Under the pieces are notes generated by a model, which worked only from the letters and a program-made list of their open reading frames with translations, had not been told where the DNA came from and did no database searches. Shown here one piece after another: positions 2-10,151 of a stretch of 64,000 nt of DNA. Source of the DNA: Candidatus Multivorans sp. (GTDB taxonomy: Bacteria; Acidobacteriota; Thermoanaerobaculia; Multivoradales; Multivoraceae); assembly GCA_965208755.1 (NCBI GenBank), contig OZ242353.1, positions 1,427,772 to 1,491,771 of the forward strand, read 5' to 3'. Numbering within the stretch: the stretch's first letter is position 1; every line of letters starts with the position of its first letter. Made by a program: the position numbers and the translations under genes.

Positions 2-1261
2 CTCTCCACCTGGATGGGCCGCTGCCAACAGCCCATCCCGGCGAAGCCCAACGCGCGGCAGCCGACGTTGTTTCCTGCTTTCTGCGGATTCAACGAGAAC
101 GTCGGCTTCCGCGCACGCATATCACTAGAGGACGAGATCTCTAGGACCCTCCAGAGGAAGGAGATACAGGACGTCACCAAGATCCAAGGTTTCAACGAGC
201 GAGTTGCGGCCGCCGTCCGACTGTTCTCCCCTCACGCGAAGTTCCTCTGCCAGAACCGGAACGTCGATGTGGTCGTCTGCGTCATTCCCGACGAGCTTTA
301 CGACAGAATCTCAAAGAGGCACACCGCGCGTCCAGAAAAGCACTTGGAGAAGCCGGACGTCGACGACCTGATCGAGATGGATTTTCGGAGGGCTCTAAAG
401 GCCGAATGTCTCCACCTGGGTGTTCCACTACAACTGATCCGCTCCAAGTCCCTCCAACCCGATCCGCCTGGCCTGCAGGATGACGCGACGAGGGCATGGA
501 ACTTCTGCACGGCCCTCTACTACAAGGCGAACAGGACGGTACCGTGGCGACTCCCTCCCGATCCCAACATGCCGCGTACCTGCTACGCCGGCATCGGGTT
601 CTTCAGGAGCCGGGATGCCAAGGTGTTGCACACTAGCCTCGCTCAGATCTTTGACGAGCTCGGCAACAGCGTGATACTCCGTGGTACGCCCGTCGGCATC
701 GACAAGAGGGACCGACGGCCGTTCCTGCGAGGTGATCAGGCGGAGGAACTCCTCACAAGAGCGCTGGCGGAGTACAGGGATGCTCTGGGACACGCCCCGG
801 CGCGAATGGTGCTACATCGGACGTCGCGTATTCGAGCACAGGAGCTTGAGGGCTTCGAATCCGCTACGGCAGCGGCTGGTGTGTCCACTCTCGACTGCAT
901 CACGGTGCAGGACACGGATGTCAGGTTGTTCCGCCAGGGCCTTTATCCGCCTCATCGTGGCTCTATGGTCTCGCTGTCCAGCAACGAGCACCTGCTCTAC
1001 ACTCGCGGCTCGGTTGATTACTACAGGACTTACCCGGGCCTTTACGTGCCACAGCCGCTGAAGATTGTTACCGAGCACGCGGAGGCGTCTCCAAAGACGA
1101 TATGCGAGGAGCTCCTAGCGCTAACGAAGATGAACTGGAACAACACCCAGTTGGACGGGAAGCCTCCGATCACGGTTCATTGTGCCAGACAGGTCGGCCA
1201 GATCCTCAAGTATGTGGACGAGCACGAGAGGCCGCCGACCAGCTATAGCTACTATATGTAG
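2..1261 (+). CDS. Prokaryotic Argonaute (pAgo), MID-PIWI region; 5' end cut by the window edge; predicted catalytically inactive
   Basis: Reading frame is open back to nt 2. MID-like 'DVVVCVIPDELYDRISKR' and 'NFCTALYYKANRTVPWRL' (Ago MID/PIWI linker 'N.ALKIN.KLGG.PW'). PIWI-like 'RMVLHRTSRIRAQELEGF' (Ago 'RIIFYRDGVSEGQF'). C-terminal 'ELLALTKMNWNNT..PPITVHCARQVGQILKYV' matches the conserved Ago C-terminus. The position of the first catalytic Asp reads GIGFF instead of GxDV, and RDG is replaced by RTS. Confidence 0.65.
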   Translation, partial: LSTWMGRCQQPIPAKPNARQPTLFPAFCGFNENVGFRARISLEDEISRTLQRKEIQDVTKIQGFNERVAAAVRLFSPHAKFLCQNRNVDVVVCVIPDELYDRISKRHTARPEKHLEKPDVDDLIEMDFRRALKAECLHLGVPLQLIRSKSLQPDPPGLQDDATRAWNFCTALYYKANRTVPWRLPPDPNMPRTCYAGIGFFRSRDAKVLHTSLAQIFDELGNSVILRGTPVGIDKRDRRPFLRGDQAEELLTRALAEYRDALGHAPARMVLHRTSRIRAQELEGFESATAAAGVSTLDCITVQDTDVRLFRQGLYPPHRGSMVSLSSNEHLLYTRGSVDYYRTYPGLYVPQPLKIVTEHAEASPKTICEELLALTKMNWNNTQLDGKPPITVHCARQVGQILKYVDEHERPPTSYSYYM

Positions 1262-1697
1262 TGCACTCAGGTAACGGAGAAGTTGACGGGCAAGGCGCCA
1301 AGGCGGAACCGGCGCAGTCCGGCTGCCCCATCTAGTCGGCGTCCACGAGTCAGTGTTCCTGACCGAGGGAGGAACCGGGACCTCGTTCTGGCCGCCGGTT
1401 GGCTCGCCGATCGAGGGTGGCGCAGCCGGACCCCGGACCGACAGCCATCAGTCCGTGGCCGAAACCACAGGTCCGGCCCGTGGGTGACGACAAGGTCGTC
1501 GGGCGCCACCGGCGACGGCGGATGCCGCTACGGCTTCGGCGCCCGAACTGCGGGACCATCGGAAGTCCGGGCTTCATCGGGAGCACAGTGCAGCGCCTGC
1601 CTTTCCGCTTCTTGCGGCGAGGGCGAACGGTGAGTCGGGCGCGGGCCCCGTTCGTATTGTGGAACGATAGGGCCCTGCACAGGGTTGCCTGAACGCC

Positions 1698-4600
1698 ATG
1701 TCACTCCAACAACAAGCGGTCTCCGACTTCGGACGTGAAGCCAAAGCCAAGCTCTCGAATCCGGTCGCGAGCGGCGCGCCGGAGGAACAGTTGCGCGCGC
1801 CGCTCAATATGCTCGTCAAGGATCTGGCCGGACTGCTGGGCCTGCGTCCAGAGGCAGTGGTCCTGGTTGGCGAGACATCGCTTGCCGACATCAGAACCCG
1901 GCCCGACTTCGCCGTCACCCGCGGTAACGCCCTGATCGGCTTCATCGAAGTCAAGGCGCCAGGGAAAGGCGCGGATCCCCGACGCTTCCGTGACGCGCAT
2001 GATCAAGAGCAGTGGGCAAAGCTCCAGTCTCTCCCGAACCTCATCTACACGGACGGCAACGGGTTCAGCCTCTGGCGGAATGGCGAGTTGGTGGAACAGG
2101 TCGTTCAGTTGGAAGGGGACGTGGCGACCTCCGGCGGACAGCTCTCCGCCCCCGACAACCTCTTGTCCGTCTTCGACAACTTCTTCCAGTGGGAGCCATT
2201 GCCGCCCCGTTCGGCCAAGGAGCTGGCCGGCACGACGGCCCGGCTATGTCGCTTGCTGCGCGAGGAGGTAACGGAACAGTTGGGCCGCGGTTCACCCTCG
2301 CTCACGAATCTCGCGACGGATTGGCGAAAGCTCCTTTTTCCGAGGGCCACGGATGAAGCCTTCGCCGACGGCTACGCCCAGGCTGTCACCTTCGGGCTCC
2401 TGATGGCGCGAGCGCGCGACATCAGGCTCGCCGAGGGTCTCGATCGAGTCGCCCGCGAGTTGCGCGACACCAATACGCTCATCGGTACAGCCCTCCGCAT
2501 CCTCACCGACGACGCCGACAATGAGATGGCGCTCAAGACCTCGCTCGCCACCCTGACGAGAGTGCTCGACGCAGTCGATTGGCTCACCGTCAGCAAGGGC
2601 GAACCGGAAGCCTGGCTGTACTTCTACGAGGACTTCCTGGGCGTGTACGACAACGAGCTTCGCAAGAAGACAGGCTCGTACTACACGCCGCCCGAAGTGG
2701 TCGCCGCGATGGTGCGGCTGGTCGACGAGGCCCTGTGCTCCGGGCAGCGCTTCGGTCTGCACGGCGGGCTCGCCTCCCCGGACGTGACCATCGCCGACCC
2801 GGCGACGGGGACCGGCACCTTCCTGCTCGGGGTTCTACGGCGCATCGCGCAGACGACCGCGGCCGACCAAGGGCCCGGTGGGCCGCCCGCCGTGGTCGAG
2901 GAGGCCGTATCCCGACTCATCGGATTCGAGATGCAGTTCGGTCCCTTCGCCGTGGCGCAACTCCGCCTCCTCGCGGAGTTGCGATCGCTCCTCGGTGACC
3001 CGGACGCGGTGCCCGAGACGCGGCTGTTCGTGACCGACACGCTTGGCAACCCCTATGCCGAGGAGGAGTACCTGCCGAACATCCTCACGCCCCTCGGCGA
3101 GTCTCGCCAGCGCGCAAATGCCATCAAGCGGGAGGAGGAGATTAGGGTCGTCATCGGCAATCCGCCTTACAAGGAAAAAGCGAAGGGACTCGGCGGCTGG
3201 ATCGAGAGCGGCTCGCCGGGCAGGGAGGCTGCCGCTCCCTTCCGCCAGTGGATGCCTCCGGTGGAGTGGAGGGTCGGCACCCATACGAAGCATCTGCGAA
3301 ACCTCTACGTCTACTTCTGGCGCTGGGCGACGTGGAAGGTCTTCGGTGACGCCAACCTGCCGGGCATTGAGGATCATGGGCCGAACCGCACCGAAGACGG
3401 CAACCGGTCACGGACAGAAGGCGCGCGGCCGACAGATCGTCGCGGCATCGTCTGCTTCATCACCGTGGCGGGCTTTCTGAACGGGCCCGGCTTTCAGAAG
3501 ATGCGGGCGGAGCTCCGCCGGGACGCGGACGAGATCTGGGTCATCGACTGCTCGCCGGAGGGGCATCAACCGGAAGTAAGGACTCGCATCTTCCAGGGTG
3601 TGCAGCAGCCGGTTTGCATCGTCATGGCGGTTCGCAGCACCGACGCGGGCTCGGTCGAACCGGCGCGAGTCCGCTACCGGTCTCTGCCGCCCGGACATCG
3701 AACCGAGAAGTTCGCGGCGCTTGGCCAGATTGCGCTCGACGACGACGGTTGGACTGAATCGCGGGCGGAACCCCGCGCCTCGTTCTTGCCCCAACCAGCC
3801 GGGACTTGGGGGGAGTTCGCGGCTCTGGAAGACCTGTTCGACTACGACGGCTCCGGCGTCATGCCCGGACGGACTTGGGTGATCGCTCCCGATCGCGACT
3901 CGTTGGAGCGACGCTGGAAGGCGCTGCAATCCGAAGCCGACACCGGAACCAAGGAGGCGCTCTTCTACCCGCATCCGCAAGGGGACAAGCACGTCCACAA
4001 GCCGTTGCGGCGGGGACTCCATGGCCACGAGTTTCGTTCTGGCCCAGTCGCCTCGGACACCGGAGCCGTGATCCCGCCGGTCCTCTACGGGCACCGCTCC
4101 TTTGATCGTCAGTGGATCATCCCGGATGGGCGGCTCATCAATCGGCCGAATCCGACCCTTTGGGGCTCTCAGTCCAACCGGCAGGTCTGGATGACGGCAC
4201 TACAGGCGCACACGATCTCTGCGGGGCCGGCTGTCACCTTCGCCGCGGCGATACCCGATCTGCACCACTACAACGGTCGGGGCGGTCGTGTGTTCCCTCT
4301 TTGGGCCGACCGCGATTGCCGGACGCCCAACCTCAAGGCTGGCCTGCTCCAGGAACTGGCCGATGTCCAGGGGGTTGCCGTCGGCGCCCCCGACCTCATG
4401 GCCTACTTCGCGGCGGTCGCGGCGCACCCCGCGTACACGGCGCACTTCCGCTCCGATCTAGTGCAGCCCGGCTTGCGGTTTCCATTGACCGCTGACGCCT
4501 CGCTATTCGCCGACGCAGTCGAGATCGGGCGAGAGATTGTCTGGCTCCACTGCTTCGGCGAGCGGTTCGCCGACGCCGATGCAGGACGACCCGACGGCCC

Positions 4601-5108
4601 GCCGCGCATGCCACAGCACGAGCGGCCCACTATCCCGGCGGAAGGCGCGATCTCTACCCACCCGGACCACTTCCCGGAACGCCTCGACTACATCGCCACA
4701 CTCCGCCGCCTGACGGTAGGCGACGGCTTCATCGACAACGTGCCGCCAGCGGTGTGGGAGTACGAAGTCTCGGGCAAACAGGTGCTCCCCCAATGGTTCA
4801 GCTACCGCCGGCGTGATCGCTCCCGGCCCCTCATCGGCGACCGGCGACCGCCGTCCGCGCTTGAGGAGGTCCAGGCCGACCGCTGGCTCGCTGAGTACAC
4901 CACGGAACTGATCAACGTACTGCATGTGCTCGGTCGTCTGGTCGCGCTCGAACTTCGACAGGCCGATCTTCTCGGCCGAATCTGCGACGGCCCCCTCTTG
5001 AGCGCCGACGATCTTCGGACCAACGGAGCCTTCGACGCGTCGGTCACGGTACGGCGCGGGCGCGCAAGCGAGGGGCAGGGGAGCCTCCTCGACCACCCGG
5101 ATACCTAG
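1698..5108 (+). CDS. Type IIG/IIL restriction-modification enzyme, MmeI-like: N-terminal PD-(D/E)xK nuclease fused to gamma-class N6-adenine methyltransferase and a C-terminal target-recognition region
   Basis: N-terminal 'RPDFAVTRGNALIGFIEVKAPGK' (D-x12-E-V-K, as in the MmeI nuclease domain); 'SYYTPPEVV'; methyltransferase motif I 'DPATGTGTFL' and motif IV 'NPPY' (Eco57I-type N6-MTase). 1136 aa. No brx or pglZ partners nearby, so it is not BREX PglX. Confidence 0.7.
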   Translation: MSLQQQAVSDFGREAKAKLSNPVASGAPEEQLRAPLNMLVKDLAGLLGLRPEAVVLVGETSLADIRTRPDFAVTRGNALIGFIEVKAPGKGADPRRFRDAHDQEQWAKLQSLPNLIYTDGNGFSLWRNGELVEQVVQLEGDVATSGGQLSAPDNLLSVFDNFFQWEPLPPRSAKELAGTTARLCRLLREEVTEQLGRGSPSLTNLATDWRKLLFPRATDEAFADGYAQAVTFGLLMARARDIRLAEGLDRVARELRDTNTLIGTALRILTDDADNEMALKTSLATLTRVLDAVDWLTVSKGEPEAWLYFYEDFLGVYDNELRKKTGSYYTPPEVVAAMVRLVDEALCSGQRFGLHGGLASPDVTIADPATGTGTFLLGVLRRIAQTTAADQGPGGPPAVVEEAVSRLIGFEMQFGPFAVAQLRLLAELRSLLGDPDAVPETRLFVTDTLGNPYAEEEYLPNILTPLGESRQRANAIKREEEIRVVIGNPPYKEKAKGLGGWIESGSPGREAAAPFRQWMPPVEWRVGTHTKHLRNLYVYFWRWATWKVFGDANLPGIEDHGPNRTEDGNRSRTEGARPTDRRGIVCFITVAGFLNGPGFQKMRAELRRDADEIWVIDCSPEGHQPEVRTRIFQGVQQPVCIVMAVRSTDAGSVEPARVRYRSLPPGHRTEKFAALGQIALDDDGWTESRAEPRASFLPQPAGTWGEFAALEDLFDYDGSGVMPGRTWVIAPDRDSLERRWKALQSEADTGTKEALFYPHPQGDKHVHKPLRRGLHGHEFRSGPVASDTGAVIPPVLYGHRSFDRQWIIPDGRLINRPNPTLWGSQSNRQVWMTALQAHTISAGPAVTFAAAIPDLHHYNGRGGRVFPLWADRDCRTPNLKAGLLQELADVQGVAVGAPDLMAYFAAVAAHPAYTAHFRSDLVQPGLRFPLTADASLFADAVEIGREIVWLHCFGERFADADAGRPDGPPRMPQHERPTIPAEGAISTHPDHFPERLDYIATLRRLTVGDGFIDNVPPAVWEYEVSGKQVLPQWFSYRRRDRSRPLIGDRRPPSALEEVQADRWLAEYTTELINVLHVLGRLVALELRQADLLGRICDGPLLSADDLRTNGAFDASVTVRRGRASEGQGSLLDHPDT

Positions 5109-5189
5109 ACAGTCGAACCGAATGCCAACCGGCCATGTGGCCGTACCCTGGCAGCCTGTGGTGGCGGGGAAGCCACTGAGAGCAACAGC

Positions 5190-5378
5190 TCAGGGGATCG
5201 ACTCGACCCCCAGATCCGCGCAGATCTTCCGCGCCAGTATCCGGTTGATCTCGGTATGCCGTGGAATGGCGCTACGGCGATCGTCGGCGCGGTTCCACCA
5301 CCAGGAGCGCCGTCGCCCTTCCCGCACCAGCTCGCGGCCCTGTCTTCGAAGATGGCGCAGAAGAGCTCTGCGCTTCAG
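5190..5378 (-). CDS. hicA: HicA-like mRNA interferase toxin (about 62 aa); no canonical start codon, CTG candidate
   Basis: Translation 'LKRRALLRHLRRQGRELVREGRRRSWWWNRADDRRSAIPRHTEINRILARKICADLGVESIP' fits the HicA/YcfA pattern (helix-G-basic-SWW-N, then ..IPRH..I....L). It overlaps the hicB stop by 4 nt. It is absent from the ORF track because there is no ATG/GTG/TTG after the upstream stop. Confidence 0.5.
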   Translation of the reverse strand: MKRRALLRHLRRQGRELVREGRRRSWWWNRADDRRSAIPRHTEINRILARKICADLGVESIP

Positions 5379-5590
5379 GTACCAACGACGACCTTCTCCA
5401 GCGTGTAGCCCTCACCCGCCGCGGCCAGCGCCGCCGCGCGATTGAACTCCAGCGCCTCGCTCAGAGTGATGGTCAATGTGTCCAGTAACTCCTCGCAGCT
5501 CCGTTCCTGGCAGTTCAGGCCCGGCACCTCCTCGATCCAACCGATCCACCAGTCACCGGCCCGCTTGACGATCGCGGTGTACTCCTGCAC
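5375..5590 (-). CDS. hicB: HicB-like antitoxin (UPF0150/HicB_lk family)
   Basis: 'YTAIVKRAGDWWIGWIEEVPGLNCQERSCEELLDTLTITLSEALEFNR' matches the small HicB fold proteins. GTG start at V22 of the listed ORF with an upstream 'GAGGAG..GGAGG'; alternative ATG starts exist at 5638 and 5653. Confidence 0.55.
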   Translation of the reverse strand: MQEYTAIVKRAGDWWIGWIEEVPGLNCQERSCEELLDTLTITLSEALEFNRAAALAAAGEGYTLEKVVVGT

Positions 5591-5858
5591 TTCCTCCGGC
5601 TCCTCTTGCGAAGACGTTCGTCGCAAGCACCCATGCATCCAGGCAGCCCGCAAAGCAGATTCTATCTCCGCGGCGGCCCTTGGCCGCTCCCATGAGGCCG
5701 TTCAGTTCGCTTGCGTCGTCTGCCAGGTAGAGGTAGCTTCCACGCAGATACCCGCCGGCAACGTGCTGTCGGCTCAAGGGCTGCTCTTCGGAGCAGCCCT
5801 TGCTGTTTCGGGCCTCGGGCTAGACTCTCGGCATCCAGTCGAAACAGGAGGACGCAGA

Positions 5859-6929
5859 ATGAGAGTCCGATTCACCGCGGCTTCGACCGCCATCCTCGTG
5901 CTGTTGCTCGCGGCGCCGGCCTTCGCGGCCGAAGGCGAGATCAAACGGGCCGCCAACGGCAAGCCCGACCTGACCGGCACCTATGACGCGGCCACCCTGA
6001 CGCCGCTCCAGCGGCCGGAGGAGTACGGCGAGAACCTGTACCTGACGCCGGAAGAGGCGGAGAAGATCGCGGCCGACGCGGCCAAAGGGCGCGCCGAACG
6101 CCACCAAGTCTCCGATCCGAACCGCGAAGCGCCGCCGGAGGGTGGAGACGGCTCACCCGGCGCGGCCGGCAACGTCGGCGGCTACAACAGCTTCTGGCTC
6201 GACCGGGGCACGGACACGTTCGCGGTGGACGGCAAGTTCCGCACCTCGATCATCATCGATCCGCCGAACGGCCGCATGCCGGAAACGACCGAGGCGGCGA
6301 AGGCGAGATTCGCGGAGCGCGCCAAGCTGCGGCGTCCGAACGAGGGCGTCGCCTGGTGGCTGGAGCTCGACGGCCCGGGCCCTTACGACGGCCCCGAGTC
6401 GCTGCCGATCAGCGAGCGCTGCATCCTCGGCTTCACCGGCGCCACGCCGACCTTCCCGAGCGGCTACAACAACTACAAGCGGGTCGTGCAGACCGAAGAC
6501 CACATCATGATCCTGATCGAGATGGTCCATGACGCCCGGATCATCCGTCTGAACGACGAGCACCCGAGTCCCGAGGAGCGGCGGTGGCTGGGCGATTCGG
6601 TCGGCTGGTGGGAAGGCGACACTCTGGTCATCGACTCGGTGCACTTCCGGCCCGACGGGTTCCTGCGCGGCGCGACCAAGGACCTCCACGTCACGGAGCG
6701 CCTGACGCTGCAGCCGGACGGCAACATCCTCTACCACTTCACGATGAACGATCCGGCCACCTGGGAAGCCCCCTGGTCCGGCGAGTACATCTGGAAGCGC
6801 GACCAGGAACGGGTCTACGAGTACGCCTGCCACGAGGGCAACTACTCGATGGGCGGCACGCTACGTGGCGCGCGCATCCTCGAGGACGACTGGCGCGCCG
6901 GCAAGGCGGCGAGCACCGGCGGCGAGTAG
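5859..6929 (+). CDS. Secreted hypothetical protein (signal peptide)
   Basis: ATG at 5859 preceded by AGGAG. N-terminus 'MRVRFTAASTAILVLLLAAPAFAAEG' is a signal peptide. The part of the listed ORF upstream overlaps hicB and is not coding. Confidence 0.55.
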   Translation: MRVRFTAASTAILVLLLAAPAFAAEGEIKRAANGKPDLTGTYDAATLTPLQRPEEYGENLYLTPEEAEKIAADAAKGRAERHQVSDPNREAPPEGGDGSPGAAGNVGGYNSFWLDRGTDTFAVDGKFRTSIIIDPPNGRMPETTEAAKARFAERAKLRRPNEGVAWWLELDGPGPYDGPESLPISERCILGFTGATPTFPSGYNNYKRVVQTEDHIMILIEMVHDARIIRLNDEHPSPEERRWLGDSVGWWEGDTLVIDSVHFRPDGFLRGATKDLHVTERLTLQPDGNILYHFTMNDPATWEAPWSGEYIWKRDQERVYEYACHEGNYSMGGTLRGARILEDDWRAGKAASTGGE

Positions 6930-7922: not shown

Positions 7923-10151
7923 CTACTCCTCCGGCCGGTAGGTGAGCCGCATCTCGGACAGGACGTTCTTGCCGCCGTCGGCGAGCAGTTCCTCACGGGC
8001 GAACCAGCTCGGCTTCATGGCGCCGACCGAGAACAGCTTCTCGGCCTGGTCGCGGTAGTGCGGCGAGTCCGGCCGGTCGCTCTGGCCGATCGGGGGCTGG
8101 GTGTAGCTGCGGATCGGGTTGCTGAGGATGACGACCTCGGTCGAGGTCTGGCCGCGGTTGCCCCAGCGGCGGCCGTCGGCGCGCGGCTGGCTGAATCCGA
8201 CGGAGCGCATGGTCGCCATTCCCGCTTCGCCGAGCGAGCCGCCGCCGACCGGCCAGGAGACTTCGTCGTTCGAGTCCTGGCGGCCGACCCTGAAGACGTC
8301 GCCAAAGACCGGACGCTGACCGCCCGGGCCTGACAGGTAGGCCTCCGCCGCGATGTCGACCGCCTCGACCAGCAACGGCAGGTCTTCGTCCCGCAGGCCG
8401 GGTGGTTCCGGCGCCTCGCGGAACAGCTCCAGGTAGTCGTTGACCCTCGATGTCATCTCGTTCATTCGTTCATCGCCGGCCAGGCCGCGCAGCGCCTCGC
8501 GCCACCGGAAGTGGGTGAGCGCGCCCCGGGAGTCGGGCTCGACGACGCCGTCCCACTGCAGGATCGGGCTCATCACGACCCCATGCTTCGGCGTGCGCCG
8601 GCCCGAAACCGCGGGCTGCGCACGTCTCAGCTCCTCGACCCAGCGCTCGAACTGGTAGACCGAACGGTTGAGCGCCAGTTCGACGATCTCTTCCTCGCTC
8701 CACTTGGCGCCGGCCTCCCGTTTCGCCTCGAGCAGCGCGACCGCGGCAGCGCCCCGTTGATGGGTGTAGAGCGCGGGCTGGTTGTAGAGATACGCGGGGT
8801 AGCGCTCCGGCACGAGCGGCGAATCGACCAGCATCGTGTCCGGGCCGATGTTGTTGTTCTGCATGTAGCCACGCTCGGGGTTGAGCAGGGACATCAGGTC
8901 GGACGCCGGGTGGATGCCCAGCCATTCGGTCTCGGAGGTCGATCCGTCGACGGGACGGCTCCAGTCATGGCCGTCCGGCCGGATCGGCACCCGGCCGGTC
9001 CGTTGGTAGTAGATGTTGCCGCCGGTGTCCGCGATCATCACGTTCTGCGGCATGATCTGGCGCACGTCCAGCGCCGCGGCCGCGCCCTCGTAGTCCTCCG
9101 CGACCATGAACCAGTACTTGGACTCGAGGTAGCCGATCTCGTCCTCGTAGGCGAGGGCCGCGGCGTAGGCGCGGTCGTCGTCGCGGGCGACGATCGGACC
9201 GTGGTGGGAGTACCAGAAGGTCGCCTCCCGCGGCTTCGCTTCGCCGGCGACCGAGACCTCGACCGTACGGCTCTCCAGTTGCCGCCACTCGCCGTCGTAG
9301 AGATAGCGGCTCGGGTCGTCCGGGTCGAGCGTCAACTCGTAAACGTCGGCCGTGTCCGGACCGCCGGTCGTGTGGGCCCACGCGACGTGCTCGTTGTGGC
9401 CCAGGTTGACGTACGGAAAGCCCGCCGTGGCGAAGCCGCTGATGTGGATGTCCCCGGCGTGGAGCCGCAGTTCCCAGTAGCGGTGGCGGCCGAGCCAGGA
9501 AAGGTGCGGGTCGATGATCAGAGCCGCCGCCCCGAACGTCGTCTGATCCGGCGCCAGCGCGATCTCGTTGGACGCCCGCAGGTCGACGTCGAAGTTCGGC
9601 TCGATGCCGACCGCCCGCAGGTCGGAGCGCGCCTGCCCCGCCGGCCAGCTCCAGATGAACTGGCGGCTGAAAGCGACCGGCATGTAGACGTCGACCGGGC
9701 GGTCGCCCCACCAGTCCGGCACCTCGTCGGGATGCGCTTCGAGGTAGTCGTTGATGCCCGCGATGAACGCCGCCAGGTGCCGGCGGAGCTCCGGGTTCAG
9801 CTTCGCCTCGTAGTGACGCTTCGCCGTGCCGTAGTGGTCCCACATCCGCGACTCGAGATCGGACCGCACCCAGGCGTCGTTGTTGCCGGGTCCGAAGGCG
9901 GCGGCGTACTCGCCGAGTCCGAAGAGGTAGTTCTCGAGCAGTTGCGACAGCCGGTCCTCCGCCATCGCCCAGCCGGAGGCGTAGAGACCGGCCTCGGCCG
10001 ACTCGGCGTAGATGTGGGGAACGCCCCAGGTGTCCCGGTAGACCGTCGCTTCCTCGCCGCCTCCGCCGGGCGGTCCGCAGGCCGCGACCAGCGCCAAGAG
10101 CGGCACGGTCAGAGTCGTCCCGAGCACCGGCCAGATGCCTCGCTTCTCCAC
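7923..10151 (-). CDS. Penicillin acylase family protein (Ntn-hydrolase; penicillin amidase or AHL acylase-like), lipoprotein
   Basis: 'ASNEIALAPDQT' (Ser nucleophile context as in 'SNMWVIG'); family-typical length (about 743 aa from GTG at 10151 preceded by AGGAGG); lipobox 'LLALVAAC'. The longer 956-aa ORF extension looks spurious. Confidence 0.7.
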   Translation of the reverse strand: MEKRGIWPVLGTTLTVPLLALVAACGPPGGGGEEATVYRDTWGVPHIYAESAEAGLYASGWAMAEDRLSQLLENYLFGLGEYAAAFGPGNNDAWVRSDLESRMWDHYGTAKRHYEAKLNPELRRHLAAFIAGINDYLEAHPDEVPDWWGDRPVDVYMPVAFSRQFIWSWPAGQARSDLRAVGIEPNFDVDLRASNEIALAPDQTTFGAAALIIDPHLSWLGRHRYWELRLHAGDIHISGFATAGFPYVNLGHNEHVAWAHTTGGPDTADVYELTLDPDDPSRYLYDGEWRQLESRTVEVSVAGEAKPREATFWYSHHGPIVARDDDRAYAAALAYEDEIGYLESKYWFMVAEDYEGAAAALDVRQIMPQNVMIADTGGNIYYQRTGRVPIRPDGHDWSRPVDGSTSETEWLGIHPASDLMSLLNPERGYMQNNNIGPDTMLVDSPLVPERYPAYLYNQPALYTHQRGAAAVALLEAKREAGAKWSEEEIVELALNRSVYQFERWVEELRRAQPAVSGRRTPKHGVVMSPILQWDGVVEPDSRGALTHFRWREALRGLAGDERMNEMTSRVNDYLELFREAPEPPGLRDEDLPLLVEAVDIAAEAYLSGPGGQRPVFGDVFRVGRQDSNDEVSWPVGGGSLGEAGMATMRSVGFSQPRADGRRWGNRGQTSTEVVILSNPIRSYTQPPIGQSDRPDSPHYRDQAEKLFSVGAMKPSWFAREELLADGGKNVLSEMRLTYRPEE

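Follow-up and report, generated by a model that had tools for sequence, protein, structure and literature searches.

Two consecutive genes on the forward strand at the left edge of a 64,000-nucleotide stretch of DNA from Candidatus Multivorans sp. (hereafter the window) encode a short pAgo and a single-chain restriction-modification (RM) enzyme and most probably represent two autonomous defence systems that share a variable region of the chromosome (Table 1). Each of the two systems is best read as belonging to an already known kind of defence system. A preliminary description of the locus had considered both simple co-residence in a defence island and a composite unit in which the RM protein serves as effector or marker for the inactive pAgo. 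Synteny and the comparison with a related contig without pAgo support the former; the latter idea fails because the pAgo family has a conserved partner of its own, an Mrr-like(SMEK)-APAZ gene directly upstream of the pAgo.

Table 1. Position of the pAgo and RM features in the window
Feature	Position	Strand	Basis
C-terminal 419 codons of a ~474-aa short pAgo, MID-PIWI, predicted catalytically inactive	2..1261	+	PADLOC, PDB
Spacer between pAgo stop and RM start, 436 bp	1262..1697		lineage-specific
Single-chain DrdV-like Type IIL/IIG RM enzyme, 1136 aa	1698..5108	+	PADLOC, PDB profile
PD-ExK nuclease active-site motif, P69-D70 ... E84-V-K86	1905..1955	+	sequence, homologue alignment
Gamma-class N6-adenine methyltransferase core, motif I D367-P-A-T-G-T-G to motif IV N488-P-P-Y	2796..3170	+	Pfam, alignment
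C-terminal target-recognition domain, Type_ISP_C, residues 712-1043	3831..4826	+	Pfam PF18135

The short pAgo gene

Reading frame 2 runs uninterrupted from base 2 (LSTWMGRCQQ...) to a TAG stop codon at 1259-1261, with about 55 N-terminal residues of the pAgo to the left of the window edge; full-length relatives with 73-82% identity comprise 474 aa. The PADLOC model pAgo_I (PDLC02376) matches the open reading frame with an E value of 9e-155 over model positions 55-455 of 455, and the best solved relatives in the PDB are the short pAgos of the SPARDA and SPARHA complexes (9qbl_B, E 7e-81, as the best match, 9jsb_A, 3e-66, 9om4_B, 6e-61, and also 9qbp_B). As in short pAgos, MID and PIWI are the sole domains, N and PAZ domains are missing and the size falls into the 450-500 aa class. 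A Pfam scan of the pAgo gave no match, and an NCBIfam scan of the pAgo and RM proteins gave nothing above the curated cut-offs.

That the pAgo is catalytically dead, as had been stated earlier, has been confirmed at the level of sequence, and the pocket for the guide 5' end is kept. The window protein carries G199, T274 and R396 at the positions assigned, by motif and not by structural superposition, as those of the catalytic Asp/Asp/His-Asp; across 81 family members, the same positions are occupied by G/S/A, S/T and R/K/N/Q and never by D, E or H. The MID-pocket residues R129, R130, K133, Q144, N167 and K175, on the other hand, are invariant in the 81 members, the window pAgo included. Over its 419 visible codons the reading frame is uninterrupted and can be aligned end to end, free of gaps, with relatives at 75-82% identity. 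The GC3 of the gene is 0.75 versus 0.89-0.93 for flanking core genes. Of the candidates scored, 2998 proteins reach E<=1e-30 and count towards the Mrr-like(SMEK) branch of short pAgos.

The upstream partner of the pAgo family

Dead pAgos need a partner nuclease (10.1101/2023.06.08.544223; 10.1101/2025.04.08.647717), and the dependence presumed in the preliminary description agrees with this literature. Within the family, such a partner is found upstream of the pAgo. Of the 78 homologous loci that could be evaluated, 77 carry an Mrr-like(SMEK)-APAZ effector gene, counted as a homologue of the upstream protein of locus L001 positioned directly before the pAgo. The order is effector-APAZ to pAgo, and the end of the effector gene and the start of the pAgo gene mostly share 4 bp. 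No partner homologue was called in L015. The gene is likewise present in all nine of the closest relatives examined (split in L168, partly visible in L170), and both relatives with an adjacent RM gene, L166 and L167, possess the upstream APAZ-nuclease partner. The L001-type protein matches Aga_REase-PNTD1-PNTD2 of PADLOC (E 1e-121 to 1e-183). The N-terminus of the relatives' partners matches SMEK_N of Pfam and the PDB entry 'Mrr domain from Kordia jejudonensis Mrr-APAZ pAgo' (E 1e-15), and their APAZ part matches the DREN-APAZ chain 9jsb_D. The Pfam scan of these partners showed SMEK_N, or DUF4062 in L013, and no DUF4365, so that they do not classify as SPARDA effectors. For the window pAgo, the partner position falls beyond the left edge of the window.

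The neighbours of the cassette vary from locus to locus elsewhere: among 75 first downstream genes, 54 are singletons, and integrases, IS elements and other defence genes occur nearby as well. The best explanation is that the window pAgo constitutes the downstream gene of a two-gene S2B, Mrr-like(SMEK)-APAZ cassette with its partner predicted off the left edge; in the source genome, the effector gene would end some 165 bp before the first base of the window.

Mrr-like (SMEK) effectors have been placed in the short-pAgo clade S2B in the literature, where the Kordia jejudonensis example has been named 'SPARMA'. With this KjAgo system the locus shares a pAgo of about 474 aa consisting of MID and PIWI without catalytic residues; the likeness of the partner (an Mrr domain with SMEK_N followed by APAZ) and the overlapping operon are seen in the relatives, outside the window. 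SPARDA (DREN/DUF4365-APAZ; Nba, Xau, Eae) and SPARHA (HNH-APAZ) provide the closest solved pAgo structures and a similar APAZ in the relatives' partners, and the logic of guide RNA, DNA target, oligomerisation and collateral nuclease is, by analogy, likely common to all of them. The effector domain of the relatives differs, however, in being Mrr-like/SMEK instead of DUF4365 or HNH.

The restriction-modification enzyme

The RM gene, with an ATG at 1698, is the next long open reading frame after the pAgo and lies on the same strand, 436 bp behind the pAgo stop at 1261, precisely as had been described. The fusion of nuclease, N6-adenine methyltransferase and target-recognition domain in 1136 aa equally proved to be intact: the PADLOC model REase_MTase_IIG (PDLC03631) matches over its full length with 1306 bits, Pfam places N6_Mtase at residues 309-494 and Type_ISP_C with E 3.6e-66, and P69, D70, E84, K86, D367-P-A-x-G-T and N488-P-P-Y do not vary across 27 homologues, among them the L005 protein with 28% identity. 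A PD-(D/E)xK nuclease, an N6-adenine methyltransferase and a target-recognition domain thus occur on one chain, as is characteristic of single-chain Type IIL/IIG enzymes. Homologues are abundant, with 5522 at E<=1e-100, and protein P0121 is 100% identical.

The former designation as an MmeI-like type IIL enzyme held for the architecture and not for the family. No MmeI_N, MmeI_hel, MmeI_Mtase, MmeI_TRD or MmeI_C domain was found in Pfam at E<=0.01, and the RM family profile did not find MmeI in the PDB at E<=0.01 either. The profile recovered DrdV (7lo5, E 5e-58) over profile positions 11-967, that is, in full length, followed by LlaBIII and LlaGI with the methyltransferase and target-recognition part only (positions 297-929, E 2e-47 and 7e-46); the target-recognition region can be aligned to the C-terminal portion of DrdV as well as to LlaGI/LlaBIII. 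On these sequence criteria, the protein is a DrdV-like Type IIL/IIG enzyme and not a member of the MmeI family.

[quoted passage not shown] The order of nuclease, methyltransferase and target recognition in one polypeptide is common to the MmeI family, from which the window enzyme deviates by its Type_ISP_C kind of target-recognition domain. [quoted passage not shown]

The RM enzyme would be self-sufficient and is predicted, by analogy to DrdV, not to need a partner, because its catalytic motifs are invariant, its similarity to DrdV is full length and homologue loci occur without pAgo.

Frequency and origin of the adjacency

Conserved synteny, which had been proposed as a check, was found within one clade and not outside it. 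The RM gene follows the pAgo in the two nearest pAgo relatives alone, L166 and L167, and the pAgo tree joins both of them with the window in a single clade. In L166 and L167 the two genes share a strand and are 71 bp apart, a spacing that would permit co-transcription. The adjacency is kept in all three lineages, whose nucleotide sequences are about 18-24% apart. The RM gene is missing from eight other near-relative pAgo contexts (75-80% identity) and from 79 of 80 genome loci of pAgo homologues, with one of a different subfamily located upstream in the remaining locus. Reciprocally, no pAgo or APAZ gene was found near RM homologues in any of 80 metagenomic loci with a total of 946 kb, and the nearest RM homologues whose neighbourhood is visible stand alone (P0122, 86%; P0125, 83%, in 10 places). 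In the RM tree (neighbour-joining, no support values), the window RM does not group with the L167 RM, which fits RM autonomy. Other methyltransferase or RM genes are located near further pAgo-family members (L005, L024/L045/L050/L055/L075 and L161-163); the Eco57I/DrmMI-like gene in the second set overlaps the partner gene. A literature search for a described pairing of a short pAgo with an RM system found none.

The pAgo-less contig L171 matches the window at 1689-5130, which contains the RM gene, and at 5169-5691 and 5814-6000 with 84-90% nucleotide identity, the homology starting 9 bp before the RM ATG. In L171, the RM gene lies 178 bp after the gene that precedes the pAgo cassette in L166: positions 1-313 of L166 match 7513-7823 of L171 and 3642-4340 match 8000-8698, so that 3.3 kb with Mrr-APAZ and pAgo in L166 stand where L171 has a 178-bp spacer. 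Equally, the homology of the window with its near relatives L001 and L002 ends at the pAgo stop codon. Because L171 has the same locus without pAgo, the cassette of about 3.2 kb can so be seen, from these alignments, as an insertion or deletion beside a resident RM gene. A single insertion just upstream of the RM gene, or a loss in the sister lineage, would have created the difference, and the adjacency would then have been inherited within the shallow clade of the window, L166 and L167.

A mobile block of three genes had been considered as well, since L166 and L167 differ in what flanks them and the L166 flank matches window positions 6627-6923. It was dropped since L171 shows that the flank gene belongs to a multi-copy paralogous family, one copy of which lies at this very locus just upstream of the RM gene.

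The spacer of the window is specific to its lineage, as about 20 bp at each end of its 436 bp align with the 71-bp spacer of L166 and L167. No Rfam family, tRNA, sigma-70-like promoter or terminator-like site was detected in it, no second copy exists within the window (repeats are short and at chance level) and it showed no similarity to the sequences that precede the RM gene in L171, L172 and L181.

Alternative interpretations

Among the alternatives, co-adaptation of two otherwise autonomous systems survives best, although it is considered unlikely. The two systems would act in series, be kept together and possibly be co-transcribed; for example, restriction would damage the invader first, and the abortive short-pAgo system would fire if restriction is overwhelmed or the phage is modified. 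The persistence of the adjacency in three diverged lineages, the tight spacing in L166 and L167 and the recurrence of RM or methyltransferase genes beside other cassettes of the pAgo family are consistent with it. However, the linkage represents one shallow clade and one locus for which common descent suffices, the window has 436 bp of unrelated sequence where its relatives have the short spacer, the L167 pAgo is frameshifted, and defence genes cluster in general. Slightly less probable still is retention of the cassette and the RM gene by cooperation, with possible co-transcription in L166/L167 and a family that may favour large N6-adenine methyltransferase genes. Unmodified DNA would then meet the RM enzyme first, and the timing of the RNA-guided, abortive Mrr-like-APAZ/pAgo response would depend on what restriction does or, with modified phage, fails to do; the Eco57I/DrmMI-like gene of L024, L045, L050, L055 and L075 would be a second example of recruitment.

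It is distinctly improbable that the pAgo is an orphan, with the effector gene lost or the cassette non-functional, and persists as a relic beside a working RM gene. Its upstream gene lies outside the view and decay does occur in relatives, as in the frameshift of L167, the split partner gene of L168 and the missing partner call in L015, but the open, gap-free frame and the retention of every family-invariant MID-pocket residue in the window pAgo argue against decay. Least credible of all is the composite unit, with guide recognition by the dead pAgo and cleavage or self/non-self marking by the RM fusion, for which the shared strand and adjacency, the short spacer in two relatives and the general need of dead pAgos for a nuclease could be put forward, but which is contradicted by the family's own upstream APAZ-nuclease partner, also in both RM-linked relatives, by the RM protein itself, which is without an APAZ region and matches no pAgo or APAZ model of PADLOC, by RM homologues without pAgo in 80 of 80 loci and in the closest relatives with visible context, and by the lack of this RM in 79 of 80 pAgo genome loci.

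Proposed mechanism and implications

For two autonomous systems, the following mode of action can be proposed. SPARDA has been described as an RNA-guided, DNA-activated collateral nuclease (10.1101/2023.06.08.544223; 10.1101/2025.04.08.647717), and activation by filaments in SPARDA and SPARHA is described in further reports (PMC12205087, PMC12774872, PMC12738770). By analogy to both systems, the heterodimer of pAgo and effector would load small RNA guides and recognise complementary invader DNA, upon which the complex would oligomerise and switch on the effector nuclease, leading to indiscriminate DNA degradation and abortive infection. For the Mrr-like subfamily, the accessible literature contains an in vitro nuclease report alone, as cited in 10.1101/2023.06.08.544223, and no in vivo data were found there. 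As in DrdV (10.1101/2021.01.06.425610), the RM enzyme would protect its own DNA by methylating a single strand of an asymmetric site and would cut unmodified DNA at a fixed distance once several site-bound molecules assemble.

If true, the composite idea would have meant a new way of arming a dead Argonaute; as it stands, the locus adds no new principle. It also calls for caution, as a dead pAgo at the edge of a window probably has its partner cut off. On the other hand, the locus is a natural example of a two-gene short-pAgo cassette that came to lie beside a resident RM gene and thus shows how a defence island grows. Furthermore, short pAgos of the Mrr-like(SMEK) branch are numerous and barely studied, which makes any of them a reasonable candidate for biochemistry.

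The short Argonaute and its predicted upstream partner

The arrangement seen in the preliminary description, a dead short Argonaute (pAgo) followed on the same strand, 436 bp from its stop codon to ATG 1698, by a 1136-aa RM gene, is borne out by the open reading frames. As the pAgo ORF, which has no match in a Pfam scan, covers positions 55-455 of the 455 of PADLOC model pAgo_I (PDLC02376, E 9e-155), the window takes in a short MID-PIWI Argonaute except for its first ~55 amino acids; full-length relatives (73-82% identity) have 474 aa. The closest solved structures are the SPARDA short pAgos 9qbl_B (E 7e-81), 9qbp_B and 9jsb_A and SPARHA 9om4_B, whereas SPARTA and SPARSA pAgos are more remote PDB relatives. 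G199, T274 and R396, which we take from general motif knowledge to be the catalytic PIWI positions, are occupied across 81 family members by G/S/A, S/T and R/K/N/Q, in none by an acidic residue or histidine, and the candidate MID-pocket residues R129, R130, K133, Q144, N167 and K175 are invariant in these members. Judged from these residues the pAgo is catalytically dead, as had been proposed, and is probably still a guide binder.

A composite guide-plus-effector module of pAgo and RM enzyme, the central proposal of that description, fails by the refutation criterion named there, since the pAgo has a partner gene of its own that is predicted for this genome just beyond the left edge of the window. 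In a sample of 80 pAgo genome loci (of 476 found, relatives 48-77% identical) the contig covers the sequence upstream of pAgo in 78, and in 77 of them the same-strand gene directly 5' belongs to one family of ~455-560-aa proteins, mostly overlapping the pAgo start by 4 bp. These partners match PADLOC Aga_REase-PNTD1-PNTD2 (E down to 2e-183), carry Pfam SMEK_N at an N-terminus that matches the PDB entry 'Mrr domain from Kordia jejudonensis Mrr-APAZ pAgo' (E 1e-15), and resemble in their C-terminal two-thirds the APAZ part of DREN-APAZ (PDB). The Kordia system has been named SPARMA (10.1101/2025.04.08.647717), and nuclease activity in vitro is on record for one Mrr-associated short pAgo, as cited in 10.1101/2023.06.08.544223. 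An upstream partner is likewise present in each of the nine closest relatives that were looked up (L161-L170, 77-82% identity), with a SMEK_N annotation in eight; in L168 it is split in two (345 aa and 108 aa), and in L170, where the contig ends within the gene, it carries no annotation, the pAgo there being identical to that of L001, which has a SMEK_N partner. The Mrr-APAZ gene of the window genome is predicted to end ~165 bp left of base 1.

Within the family, L015 has no recognisable partner ORF, and in two Bacteroidota loci the APAZ partner begins with DUF4062 and not SMEK_N, which suggests an effector-domain swap inside one pAgo family.

A DrdV-like restriction enzyme

Along its full length the RM protein fits PADLOC model REase_MTase_IIG (PDLC03631, 1306 bits); a Pfam scan recovers N6_Mtase and Type_ISP_C (E 3.6e-66, residues 712-1043) and neither an MmeI-family domain nor a helicase. 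Alignment with 26 homologues shows P69-D70...E84-x-K86, motif I D367-P-A-x-G-T and N488-P-P-Y to be invariant. Searched against the PDB, the alignment profile finds DrdV (7lo5, E 5e-58) over nearly the whole length, LlaBIII and LlaGI in the MTase-TRD part only, and MmeI not among its matches. From these features the Type IIL architecture is confirmed, while the label 'MmeI-like' is better replaced by 'DrdV-like'. DrdV cleaves at a fixed distance once several site-bound molecules assemble (10.1101/2021.01.06.425610).

Flanking genes and neighbourhoods in the wider family

Convergent with the RM gene lies a toxin-antitoxin (TA)-like pair. One gene gives a weak match to HicA_toxin over the full length (E 5e-5, 23.7 bits, cut-off 27); the other, just upstream on the minus strand, has no Pfam match but by eye looks like a HicB-type antitoxin. 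The block is conserved in L171, a locus with an RM relative, at 84% nucleotide identity. A secreted-looking protein of ~350-365 aa, also without Pfam match, occurs in this lineage in several paralogous copies flanking variable RM, pAgo, TA and IS segments, and these copies could act as recombination sites.

Around other pAgos of the family, four proteobacterial genomes (L045, L050, L055, L075) and partly L024 and L046 hold a conserved, tightly packed same-strand cluster in the order SNF2 helicase, Schlafen-AlbA_2/HATPase_c_4/HTH protein, 1330-1350-aa Eco57I/DrmMI-like MTase (its gene overlapping the next), Mrr-APAZ, pAgo, AAA_15/AAA_21+DUF3696 ATPase, 180-aa protein, RNA ligase and HNH_2. L024, a Desulfobacterales MAG, keeps the four central genes at ~50-65% amino-acid identity each. 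This arrangement may represent a composite defence module of larger size, or else an island that has been conserved. In three further loci a ~1000-aa protein with a weak RVT_1 (reverse transcriptase) match follows pAgo after 190-420 bp. L161-L163 (78% identity) lie in an integrative, mobilisable-looking element with integrase, AlpA and MobC/NikA-like genes, in which pAgo is followed at ~1.2 kb by a 725-aa N6_N4_Mtase protein together with a convergent gene for 310 aa, a further case of a different RM-like pair beside the Mrr-APAZ and pAgo cassette.

Positions of the features discussed, by sequence
Feature	Sequence	Position	Strand	Remark
Short pAgo, 3' part	window	2-1261	+	TAG 1259-1261; frame 2 open from base 2
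Nuclease-MTase-TRD fusion (RM), 1136 aa	window	1698-5108	+	ATG at 1698; next long ORF 3' of pAgo
TA-like pair	window	5190-5653	-	
HicA-like gene	window	5190-5378	-	
HicB-looking gene	window	5375-5653	-	
TA-like block	L171	16667-17196		
~350-365-aa protein	window	5832-6929		
~350-365-aa protein	L171	1958-2995, 3114-4193, 6752-7822, 17381-18451		
~350-365-aa protein	L166	1-312		
DUF4062-APAZ partner	L012 and L013	8461-9840		
RM-linked pAgo, in two frames	L167	1936-2154, 2151-3326		
Packed cluster	L045	108-14601		
Weak-RVT_1 protein	L037	11679-14882	same as pAgo	
Weak-RVT_1 protein	L040	5243-8251	same as pAgo	
Weak-RVT_1 protein	L042	9720-12728	same as pAgo	

Conservation and origin of the adjacency

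Synteny speaks for the pairing in the two nearest pAgo relatives, L166 (pAgo 81% identical; RM 84% over the first 233 residues, then contig end) and L167 (pAgo 82%; RM 82% over 1119 residues), both with a pAgo-RM spacer of 71 bp, but otherwise against it. The pAgo of L167 is split near residues 75-83, owing to a frameshift or else to an assembly artefact. In neighbour-joining trees, which carry no bootstrap or support values, the pAgos of L166 and L167 cluster with that of the window in one clade, L164 as its sister and every other near relative being without the RM gene, and the window RM enzyme groups with solitary RM genes and not with that of L167. Among the 80 pAgo genome loci a full-length RM relative occurs in L005 only (26-29% identical, of a different PADLOC subfamily, upstream of pAgo with one gene between), and no pAgo or APAZ match turns up in the 946 kb of 80 metagenomic loci with RM homologues (57-81% identity). 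In 54 of 75 loci the gene immediately 3' of pAgo is a singleton; integrases, IS elements, TIR, BREX, Type I RM and OLD-like ATPases are among the neighbours. The RM homologue P0125 (83% identical) is solitary in 10 places, and GC3 is 0.75 for pAgo and 0.80 for RM versus 0.89-0.93 in neighbouring core genes; together with the RM tree, these observations fit independent histories of the two genes.

Of the RM homologues whose context is visible, the closest is P0122 in L171 (86% identical), and L171 has no pAgo. Three window segments, 1689-5130 with the RM gene, 5169-5691 and 5814-6000, nevertheless have syntenic counterparts in L171 (84-90% nucleotide identity), which there are set apart by an inserted IS element and two genes; the homology begins 9 bp 5' of the RM ATG. 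L166 1-313 matches L171 7513-7823 (84%), the end of the gene 178 bp upstream of the L171 RM gene, whose start is matched by L166 3642-4340. Where L171 has a spacer of 178 bp, L166 thus has, at one and the same locus, ~3.3 kb with Mrr-APAZ and pAgo, a difference that points to insertion of the cassette next to a resident RM gene, deletion being less likely. The 436-bp spacer of the window is unrelated to the 71-bp spacer.

That some cooperative benefit keeps cassette and RM gene together would agree with an adjacency kept in three diverged lineages, with the 71-bp spacing in two of them and with large MTase genes turning up repeatedly next to further cassettes of the pAgo family, and is nevertheless improbable. 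The alternative of co-residence in a defence island is supported and can be sharpened: pAgo and RM enzyme, each belonging to an already known kind, would have come to reside side by side through one insertion event that placed the cassette beside the resident RM gene, with subsequent inheritance in a shallow clade.
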